Origin: Octopus vulgaris
Lineage: Eukaryota
Direction of reading: 5' to 3'
Length of the DNA: 64,000 nt
NCBI GenBank assembly: GCA_951406725.2
Contig: OX597830.1
Location: 9,486,001 to 9,550,000 of the forward strand
The notes under the pieces were generated by a model. It saw only the letters and a list, made by a program, of their open reading frames with translations, had not been told where the DNA came from and did no database searches. Shown one piece after another: positions 20,143 to 64,000 of this stretch (within the stretch, counting starts at the first letter, position 1; each line of letters starts with the position of its first letter). The position numbers were made by a program, and so were the translations under genes.

Positions 20143-20525
20143 GGAAGCACTCCGTCGGTTCCGACGACGAGGGTTCCGGTTGATCCGAATCAACGGAACA
20201 GCCTGCTCGTGAAATTAACGTGTAAGTGGCTTAGCACTCCACAGACACGTGCACCCTTAACGTAGTTCTCGGGGATATTCAGCGTGACACAGAGAGTGAC
20301 AAGGCCGGCCCTTTGAAATACAGGTACAACAGAAACAGGAAGTAAGAGTGAGAGAAAGTTGTGGTGAAAGAGTACAGCAGGGATCACCACCATCCCTGCC
20401 GGAGCCTCGTAGAGCTTTAGGTGTTTTCGCTCAATAAACACACACAACGCCCGGTCTGGGAATCGAAACCGCGATCCTACGACCGCGAGTCTGCTGCCCT
20501 AACCACTGGGCCATTGCGCCTCCAC
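20143..20525 (-). mobile_element. Full-length SINE family C (tRNA head, possibly Arg-derived)
   Basis: Minus strand GTGGAGGCGCAATGGCCCAGTGGTTAGGGCAG...GGTTTCGATTCCC; perfect 12-bp TSD ATTTCAGGACAT (20131-20142, 20526-20537). Confidence 0.92.
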
Positions 20526-20895: not shown

Positions 20896-21200
20896 TGTGG
20901 AGGAGCAGTGGCCCAATGGTTAGGGCAGTGGACTCGCGGTCGGAGGATCGCAGTTTCGATTCTCAGACCGGGCGTTGTGTGTATTTATTGAGCGAAAACA
21001 CCTAAAAGCTCCACGAGGCTCCGGCAGGGGTGGTGGTGACCACTGTTGTATTCTTTCGCCACAACTTTCTCTCACTCTCTCTTCATGTTTCCTGAGTAAC
21101 GCTGCGATGGACTGGCGTCCTGTCCAGCTGGAGTGAACACATATGCCACAGAAACCGGGAAACTGGGCCCATGAGCCTTGCTAGGCTTGAAAAGGGCGAT
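20896..21200 (+). mobile_element. SINE family C head with alternative tail 2
   Basis: C head and body, then GCTGCGATGGACTGGCGTCCTGTCCAG...GAAACCGGGAAACTGGGCCCATGAGCC (V-SINE-like motif, from memory). Confidence 0.85.
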
Positions 21201-44861: not shown

Positions 44862-45244
44862 CGTGTCACTCCGTCGGTTACGACGAGGAGGGTTCCAGTT
44901 GATTCGATCAATGGAACAGCCTGCTCGTGAAATTAACGTGCAAGTGGCTGAGTATTCCACAGACACCTGTACCCTTAACGTAATTCTCGGGAAGATCCAG
45001 CGTGACACAGAGTGTGACAAGGCTGGCCCTTCGAAATACAGGTACAACAGAAACAGGATGAAAGAGTGAGAGAAAGTTGTGGTGAAAGAGTACAGCAGGG
45101 TTCGCCACCACTCCCTGCCGGAGTCTCGTGGAGCTTGAGGTGTTTTCGCTCAATAAACACTCACAACGTCCGGTCTGGGATTCGAAACCGCGATCCTACG
45201 ACAGTGAGTCTGCTGCCCTAACCAATGGGCCATTGCTCTTCCAC
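44862..45244 (-). mobile_element. Full-length SINE family C (tail 1) nested in an old SINE A
   Basis: 11-bp TSD GTAGGTGGAAT (44851-44861, 45245-45255); closely similar to the 20143 copy. Confidence 0.9.
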
Positions 45245-60830: not shown

Positions 60831-61143
60831 TGTGGAGGCGCAATGGCCCAGTGGTTAGAGCAGCAGAATCGCAGTCATAGGATCGCGGTTTCGATTCCCA
60901 GACCGGGCGTTGTGAGTGTTTATTGAGCGAAAACACCTAAAGCTCCACGAGTCTCCGGCACGGGGTGGTGGCGATACATGCTGTACTCTTTCGCCACAAC
61001 TTTCCCTCACTCTTTCTTCTGTTGGCCTTCTCGCTTAGCCAGTGGGGTGGCGTCATTTGAAGGCTAAAATAATGCGAAGCGCACTCTGACCAGCGATGTG
61101 TAGCAATATCTGATAGCCTGGTCAGTCACGGTGATTACGGTGA

Positions 61144-61415: not shown

Positions 61416-61883
61416 TTATCATATGAACATGTCTAGATATGCAACTATATGCATGAGAATACATACATAAGACAAAACATACAAATCTGCATACATACGT
61501 ACGTACGTACGTAGATGCAAACAAAAATACCCTGTTGATGATGTTGAAATTCCAATGAAGGAGCCGTGGATCTAGGTTAGAAACCGGCTCTTTCACTATT
61601 GGCAAGAAATCTTGAAATAAAACTGAACAATGACATACATACAATCACCCAGTGTTCTCTGCCAATCCTTTCATTGCTATTCGCTACCTCGTCAATGACA
61701 TTCTCTTATTATTTTCGGTCTGTTTTTATAGCTCAATAAAATGTAATAAAATTCCTTTATATTCATTCTTTGACGTCTCGCATTATAATTATAAAAAAAA
61801 ATACAATGATACCTTGTTGTACGAGTTCAATTCGTTCCATGACCGAGCTCGTCTTATGATTTACTCGTTTTACAACTCAATTT

Positions 61884-62190
61884 GTTGTTTGTTCCTTCTC
61901 GAGCCACGCCCGGCTCATAAGGGCCGGTTTCCCGGTTTCCTTGGCGTATAGGTTCCCCACCCAGACGGGACGCCAGTCCGTCGCAAGAGAGTTGCAAGAT
62001 GGAGGAGGAAAGAGTGAGAGAAAGTTGTGGCGAAAGAGTCCGCAATAGTTCGACATTATTTTCTGCCGAAGCCGCGTAGATCTTAGGTGTTTCCCTCATA
62101 AACACACATGCATCGCCCGACTGAGATTCGAACCCGCGATCCCTCAACCGCGAGTCCGCTGCTCTAACCACTAGGCCATATACCTCCTCA
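61884..62190 (-). mobile_element. Full-length SINE family C variant (tail 2), 3' part of the U6 chimera
   Basis: Minus strand TGAGGAGGTATATGGCCTAGTGGTTAGAGCAGCGGACTCGCGG...GGGTTCGAATCTC...GCGACGGACTGGCGTCCCGTC...GGAAACCGGCCCTTATGAGCC...ACAAACAAC. Confidence 0.88.
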
Positions 62191-62296
62191 AAAAATATGG
62201 AACCCTTCACAAATTTGCGTGTCATCCTTGCGCAGGGCCATACTAATCTTCTCTGTCTTGTTCTAATTTTAGGATATGTACCGGTGTAGCTAGTAC
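62191..62296 (-). pseudogene. U6: Full-length U6 snRNA retrocopy
   Basis: Minus strand GTACTAGC...ACATATCCTAAAATTAGAACAAGACAGAGAAGATTAGTATGGCCCTGCGCAAGGATGACACGCAAATTTGTGAAGGGTTCCATATTTTT matches metazoan U6; ACAGAGA box intact, catalytic AGC triad changed to AGT. Confidence 0.93.
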
Positions 62297-62669
62297 ACAA
62301 CTCAATTTCCCCCATTGAAATTAACTAAAATATAATTAATCCGTTCCATCCCTCGAAGACCCCCACAAAAATACTTTTTTATGGGTTCTAAAACAGAAAC
62401 GGTGTAGTTACAAGTAAAATGATGGTTATGAAAAAAAGAGAATGCAAAAGAAATATGTAAACTGGTTTTATTAACTGAAATACCTGAAAGAGGGGACGAT
62501 ATGTGTGCTCGTACTGCGGATTTCCGCTCGTACTTCAAGACATAAATTCGTACGGGTCTCGGCTCGTACAGCAAATTACTCGTACAGTGGAGCATTCGTA
62601 CTGCGAGGGTCTACTGTACAAATTAACGTTAAACTGAAGTATTACTCAAAACCTTTTGGTACGTTTTCT

Positions 62670-63746: not shown

Positions 63747-64000
63747 AGTGGAGATGCAATGGCCCAGTGGTAAGGGCAACGGTCGTTGGATCGCGGTTTC
63801 GATTCCCAGACCAGACGTTGTGAGTGTTTATTGAGCGAAAGCACCAAAAGTTCCACTGGCTCCGGCAGGGGGTGGTGGCGAATCCTGCTGTATCCTTTCA
63901 CAACAACTTTCTTTCACTCTTTCTTCCTGTTTCTGTCGTATCTGTATTTCAAAGGGCCAGCCTTGTTACACTGTGTCATGCTGAATTTCTTCCGAGAACT
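63747..64000 (+). mobile_element. SINE family C (tail 1), cut by window end
   Basis: GTGGAGATGCAATGGCCCAGTG...GGTTTCGATTCCCAGACC...CTGTATTTCAAAGGGCCAGCCTTG. Confidence 0.85.

Follow-up and report, generated by a model that had tools for sequence, protein, structure and literature searches.

U6 snRNA joined to the 5′ end of a retroelement is already known from vertebrates, as U6/L1, U6/Mon-1 and U6/AnolisSINE2 chimeras. Doucet et al. (2015, PMC4476161) described such chimeras with partners other than L1, namely U6/L2 and U6/Mon-1 in platypus and U6/L2, U6/RTEX-2 and U6/AnolisSINE2 in Anolis. These resemble the fusions analysed here: U6, in sense orientation, precedes the end of a SINE or LINE within one pair of target-site duplications (TSDs), the LINEs are of the stringent type, and template switching was offered as the explanation. 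In that paper they are reported from vertebrates only, with counts of 40 chimeras in platypus and six with AnolisSINE2. Human U6/Alu chimeras have been described as very rare.

In human U6/L1 chimeras, Moldovan et al. (2019, PMC6789731) likewise found a full-length U6 that ends in a T-run and precedes a retroelement in the same orientation. There the L1 is 5′-truncated, the partner end carries a 5′-OH and the joints are precise, whereas here the partner begins at its natural first base and has no poly(A), and the joints mostly carry extra bases. Ligation and template switching have been debated since the RtcB work, and both models fit the human genomic record, in which the L1 partners are 5′-truncated.

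Other small RNAs are also found as retrocopy heads. A preprint by Law and Burns (2025, PMC11838501) reports human 5S, tRNA, 7SL, Y and 7SK/L1 chimeras, so that diverse small RNAs occupy retrocopy 5′ ends both there and here. According to the preprint, the human 5S and tRNA pieces are fragments, mostly antisense and attributed to twin priming; the 5S copies described below are in sense and 3′-complete with trailers, the search pattern having selected 3′-complete copies. SINEU (Kojima 2015, PMC4494074) is similar in carrying an snRNA-derived head on a SINE-like insertion. Its members are true families with master copies and U1 or U2 heads, whereas the present fusions are a set of independent chimeras without a master. 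In Magnaporthe and mouse, serial jumps gave tripartite chimeras (Gogvadze et al. 2007, PMC2104539), which are three-part inserts like loci L061, L088 and L055 below, with other RNAs and LINE clades. End-to-end jumps also characterise the R2 reverse transcriptase, for which PMC8857657 shows them in vitro, again with RNAs and LINE clades other than those found here.

The fusion reported here belongs with the U6 chimeric retrocopies (Buzdin/Doucet type), its U6 being 3′-complete, in sense and directly 5′ of a non-LTR retroelement. It differs from the RtcB-type U6/L1 pattern of a variably 5′-truncated L1 with poly(A) in having a full-length SINE with an AAC-type end. Unlike the chimeras of Doucet et al. 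(PMC4476161), the class to which it belongs has intact SINEs as its largest partner group, and 5S precursors and U6atac are likewise captured. What is new is the invertebrate-like host, 5′-intact SINE partners as the largest class and the capture of 5S precursors at a frequency similar to that of U6. Literature searched mainly outside subscription journals contained no U6/SINE chimera from a mollusc or another invertebrate.

The U6–SINE fusion and its integration site

Within the window (the whole 64-kb stretch of DNA that was analysed), the sole Rfam match is a complete U6 snRNA on the minus strand at 62191–62296 (RF00026, model positions 1–105 of 105, 90.5 bits, E = 6.8e-22), as the sequence-only reading had recognised. 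This full-length retrocopy of U6 gene variant 1 shares 90.7% identity with the genes clustered on C1. The true C1 U6 genes share a TATA-containing flank that is missing at the window copy, where no U6 upstream promoter was found and MITE sequence lies upstream.

The partner, a tRNA-like SINE, occupies 61884–62189 on the minus strand. It is full length because all of its 307 nt (positions 1–307) align to a majority sequence built from 29 other family copies, at 91.6% identity, and the proposal of a 5′-intact partner was thereby borne out. The contrast that had been drawn with 5′-truncated U6/L1 has proved the most informative feature of the locus. With 90.7% and 91.6% identity to their respective sources, the U6 and SINE parts have aged alike.

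U6 had been read as ending in five T with the SINE beginning at 62190. As a correction, the T-run is six long and the conserved start of the SINE family is 62189. That start is G in 89% of 28 background copies, and because the preceding base is T in only 57% of them, the sixth T of the run (62190, minus strand) is assignable to neither part: U6 tail, a non-templated base and SINE leader are all consistent with it.

The SINE family is large, with 3693 first-look candidates. The window copy has an A-box-like motif at 62178–62168 and a B-box-like motif at 62134–62125, and its head is presumably of tRNA origin; ARAGORN found no tRNA gene in the window. The 3′ end is a short AAC-type repeat without poly(A). 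The absence of an L1-type tail is thus upheld. U6/SINE chimeras made by non-L1 machinery, which the sequence-only reading had overlooked, were already published for platypus (U6/Mon-1) and Anolis (U6/AnolisSINE2, L2, RTEX; PMC4476161). TSDs of 12–18 bp flank 16/27 background copies, so that the 12-bp TSD of the window is of the family type. With TSDs of this length and the AAC-type end, the mobiliser may be RTE-like. BLAST of the last 71 nt against the fetched loci returned only SINEs sharing that end and no LINE source. The 49 ORFs of at least 130 aa at window positions 1–61500 were judged by eye to be simple-repeat or SINE frames. Related tRNA-like heads with different tails are present in other SINEs of the window (20909–21195, 20337–20514, 45055–45233, 60843–61019 and 63748–63926), and head and middle modules are common to several SINE families.

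The whole fusion is enclosed by a perfect 12-bp TSD, as first proposed, lying at 62297–62308 on the 5′ side of the element and at 61872–61883 on its 3′ side (unstranded features; 12/12 identical). The match extends neither way. As a control for chance, the same rule gave a TSD in 27 of 1032 mismatched flank pairs.

The insertion interrupts an older MITE, an earlier observation upheld by collinear empty-site copies. The host element spans 61804–62616 on the minus strand, its first part lying at 62309–62616 and its last at 61804–61871, and measures 388 bp without the insert. It has imperfect terminal inverted repeats of ~22 bp and a TA on either side (61802–61803 and 62617–62618), as in Tc1/mariner-pogo-type elements; it is presumably Tigger-like. 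A search with the MITE gave 904 first-look candidates, and among the 40 scored, the other copies are 84–92% identical to it. Eight of 11 other copies are 378–393 bp long. In these paralogous copies, where an empty site had been anticipated, the target site is single and clean in 8/11 and double in 0/11; of the remaining three, one has lost the site by deletion, another stops short of it and the last contains a few additional bases. The window 12-mer differs by one base from the MITE majority, and this private base occurs in both duplicates, as expected of a true TSD.

A single TSD surrounds the entire fusion, and MITE copies show the empty site undoubled; the arrival of U6 and the 5′-intact SINE in one integration event, already suggested by the sequence-only reading, is therefore well supported. 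The window locus is a dead one-time retrocopy, likely without function. Metazoan U6 transcription requires an upstream promoter, and transcription from the promoter of the SINE itself would begin downstream of U6, so the fusion would not spread as a unit. The introduction of PMC4494074 states that no internal snRNA promoter is known.

A genome-wide class of U6 chimeras

The search covered a genome of 2.8 Gb in 227 contigs, whose size and SINE families of the octopus OK/OR type suggest an octopod cephalopod. With the window U6 as query, 627 candidates were obtained and 40 scored; most scored matches outside the C1 cluster consist of U6 followed by a repeat. An exact 24-mer from the U6 3′ end has 206 genomic matches. 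The fusion is thus one of a genome-wide class, and the one-off chimera that had been considered as an alternative can be set aside. The sample examined includes 90 of the first 100 listed 24-mer matches. For U6 and 5S alike, sampling was confined to the first chromosomes, and the pattern requires the 3′ end and so selects 3′-complete copies.

Loci L001–L120 contain 115 distinct U6 3′ ends, 19 gene-like and 96 non-gene. Among the latter, 38 (the window copy included) are joined to intact SINE heads of five families and 37 to LINE or SINE 3′ tails of ~50 nt; two join U6, one joins 5S and 18 have joints that are internal or of another kind. Counting only the 99 ends that carry the pattern leaves 30 heads, 35 tails, three small RNAs, 16 others and 15 gene-like ends. 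These counts are uncollapsed, and the number of events is slightly smaller, as L038–L041 are one duplicated locus and L117 is two tandem copies. One U6-tail chimera has been duplicated ~6 times within a segmental repeat of ~20 kb (L038–L043, C1:132.42–132.53 Mb).

The U6 part begins ≤3 nt from the U6 5′ end in 44/96 copies, whereas platypus U6 is mostly 5′-truncated (PMC4476161). The T-run at the joints is 1–9 long, with a mode of 5 (27/96) and lengths of 4–6 in 67/96. Extra bases are present at 28/38 SINE junctions; past the T-run, the linkers contain 37 A, 20 C, 17 T and 6 G, read in sense. Chimeras with several partners are found for each U6 gene variant. The second variant has a different 5′ stem-loop and heads chimeras equally often.

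Genuine and gene-like U6 copies have their own arrangements. Seven tandem U6 genes with the TATA flank lie ~1.1–1.4 kb apart at C1:139.42–139.43 Mb (L002, L005–L009 and L028). At L076, L077, L084, L091 and L116, gene-like U6 copies form head-to-head inverted pairs with one arm 5′-truncated and common 3′ flanks, possibly as fold-back duplications or MITE-like structures.

SINE heads and LINE tails as partners

SINE partners retain the purine first base at which background copies start. Tail types b and d are LINE 3′ ends with 2058 and 1538 exact genomic matches, respectively. The corresponding LINEs contain reverse transcriptase frames (RVT_1, E = 2.2e-30), and their motifs make them candidate members of the CR1 group.

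U6 joins these tails (10 b-type and seven d-type joints) 2–5 nt before a predicted terminal hairpin, an anchor by which the class itself is defined. The predicted tail hairpins are no more stable than shuffled sequences, with z-scores of −1.69 and −1.03. Solo tails with neither U6 nor an upstream LINE body account for 11/30 viewed copies of tail b and 13/30 of tail d. Because solo tails are also common, the break point beside the base of the hairpin is not specific to U6 but reflects stopping or cutting in general.

The two LINE families with reverse transcriptase frames were also seen at L208–L267, where short copies concentrate at the predicted 3′ hairpin base, often inside (TA)n. Short tail copies are sometimes headed by the 5′ part of a SINE (L222, L227, L014 and L037).

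Small RNAs that become heads

Each family search scored only ~45 candidates, so that contrasts between head RNAs are indicative and not rates. For U6atac, 43/46 scored candidates match and are dispersed; the 20 viewed comprise nine joined to SINE heads, seven to tails and four to other sequences. For 5S, 202 exact 3′ matches are dispersed, and the 30 viewed comprise 12 intact SINE heads, 10 tails and eight others. The 5S copies carry a few recurring trailers, each ending in a T-run, which are presumably precursor ends. The ~200 dispersed, 3′-complete 5S copies head SINEs or LINE tails (L278–L307, L228 and L134).

The Pol II snRNAs U5 and U1 are rare as heads in these samples. For U5, 26/48 scored candidates match, 23/26 of them in clusters, and one chimera was seen among two dispersed copies viewed. 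U1 gave 42 matches, mostly in clusters, with one chimera among 15 viewed. The 23 clustered U5 matches lie in gene clusters on C25, and the U1 gene clusters lie on C18 and C20, mostly at C18:48.97–49.21 Mb. Three dispersed U1 copies (L338, L341 and L343) keep the gene 3′ trailer followed by (ATT)n-type repeats, a route unlike that of the U6 chimeras.

Composite inserts were confirmed by Rfam. L061 is U6–U6–tail, with the second U6 beginning at model position 1, and L088 is U6–5S, with 5S also from position 1. L055 is a tRNA–U6–U6 fragment, L228 is 5S–tail and L186 is U5–SINE. L134 joins 5S to a SINE of the family found in the window.

Probable template jumping and alternative routes

The U6/SINE chimeras were probably made by template jumping, in which cDNA passes end to end onto an RNA with an oligo(U) end. 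At the window locus, the process began with a nick and insertion into the older MITE, leaving the 12-bp TSD. The SINE was copied to its natural 5′ start, likely by a LINE reverse transcriptase. A few non-templated bases, mostly A, may then have been added and, by pairing with the U-tail of a further Pol III RNA, have allowed synthesis to go on, and U6 was copied right through to base 1. Hundreds of independent repetitions, involving several LINE families or at least two, would have placed U6, U6atac, 3′-extended 5S and occasionally U1, U5, tRNA or a second U6 before SINEs and tails of ~50 nt.

The 5′ partner is probably selected by its 3′ oligo(U) end and not by a 2′,3′-cyclic phosphate. In a wider version, towards which the evidence leans slightly, jumping from the 5′ end of a finished template onto any oligo(U)-ended RNA (U6, U6atac, pre-5S or a further U6) would be routine for several non-L1 LINE reverse transcriptases in this genome; the partner would be chosen by its U-tail and not by the cyclic phosphate, without need of RtcB.

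The Pol III starts of SINE and 5S RNA would carry a 5′-triphosphate, and U6 a methylated cap. The spectrum of fusions fits template jumping, because natural starts would carry a triphosphate or cap and 5S would be captured without a cyclic phosphate. For the R2 reverse transcriptase, PMC8857657 reports that jumping in vitro requires non-templated addition, mostly of A; it also reports, as a point against jumping here, that overhangs of ≥3 nt are non-productive, and its authors lean towards pre-ligation for L1.

Some features of the class count against jumping. The modal T-run of 5 calls it into question, since this length also fits ligation of mature U6. The A residues on the sense strand of the linkers are unexplained by A-addition to cDNA, although they may be SINE leader. 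The tail-only class (37/96) would come from cut or truncated RNA, possibly with a 5′-OH, and weighs in the same direction.

In an alternative that appears unlikely, RNA ligation comes first: RtcB or a related ligase would join the cyclic phosphate of U6 to SINE RNA whose 5′ end had been converted to a 5′-OH, and the product would then be retrotransposed via the SINE tail. Ligation was shown for human U6/L1 in PMC6789731. It accommodates the T-run mode of 5; the tail-only class could derive from endonucleolytic cuts leaving a 5′-OH; and the cyclic-phosphate RNAs U6 and U6atac are strongly over-represented relative to U1 and U5. However, partners start at natural Pol III starts, and in U6–U6 and U6–5S fusions the second RNA is present from position 1. 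A cyclic phosphate and a 5′-OH are both required by RtcB, and with a triphosphate end 0/26 products were full-length (PMC6789731). According to the same study, 5S is without a cyclic phosphate and RtcB products are precise, whereas here 3′-complete 5S heads the same partners in similar numbers and 28/38 junctions carry extra bases.

A self-cleaving ribozyme at the partner 5′ end was considered as a source of 5′-OH, but no ribozyme family was found at Rfam gathering scores in the window or in 20 loci. Template jumping and ligation may both operate.

That a U6 retrocopy and a SINE were inserted successively, with the SINE targeting the U6 T-run, is very improbable. Such a history would be in keeping with the lack of TSDs in family K chimeras (0/20) and their scarcity in tail chimeras (6/36, four of these low-complexity), but background family K copies are also without TSDs (1/27 with). 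In family G, TSDs flank 3/11 chimeras and 4/13 background copies; since chimera and background rates are alike in both families, TSD behaviour tracks the partner family. Family K and tail loci leave no TSD, so that co-integration there is read from orientation and position only. A search with six motifs found an antisense repeat 3′ end directly after U6 in 0/95 cases, and this absence of antisense partners argues against sequential insertion. At the window locus, the one TSD around the fusion and the undoubled empty site rule out sequential insertion; for the class, it is disfavoured.

Least credible is a U6-headed composite SINE family, resembling SINEU and spreading from a master copy, which the sequence-only reading had raised as its other alternative. 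A DNA search over the junction did recover one further fusion of U6 to the window SINE family (L271), and crocodilian snRNA-headed SINEs exist (PMC4494074). Yet in L271 the U6 is of the other variant and is separated from the SINE by a 10-nt linker, the exact window junction pattern has 0 genome matches, and U6 is present in 0/29 other window-family copies, one of which has a full 5S head. This reading is largely refuted by these results.

The shared junction expected of SINEU is absent, and the SINE is in large excess without U6 (3693 candidates, 0/29 viewed with U6); thousands of SINE copies lacking the snRNA are Kojima's sign of independent chimeras (PMC4494074). Partners include at least five SINE families and four tail types, and 26 of 30 SINE-headed copies have distinct junction strings. 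The commonest shared U6 mutations are mostly CpG-type transitions distributed across partner classes, and no shared founder or diagnostic U6 mutations were found among the chimeras examined. Judged from these comparisons, the chimeras formed independently, with no master copy.

Implications

The value of the window fusion lies in the class that it revealed and not in the single locus, and the class offers a visible route by which SINEs gain new heads. Here most partners are intact at their natural first base, and 5S, without a cyclic phosphate, is captured at a rate similar to that of U6, so that ligation and template switching differ in their predictions over hundreds of loci. If template jumping is the route, the genome would be a natural record of hundreds of template jumps.

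It would also display how composite SINE heads are born. U6-headed fusions would be dead ends. Fusions headed by 5S could found families because they carry an internal promoter, and they are candidate founders of 5S-headed (SINE3) families.
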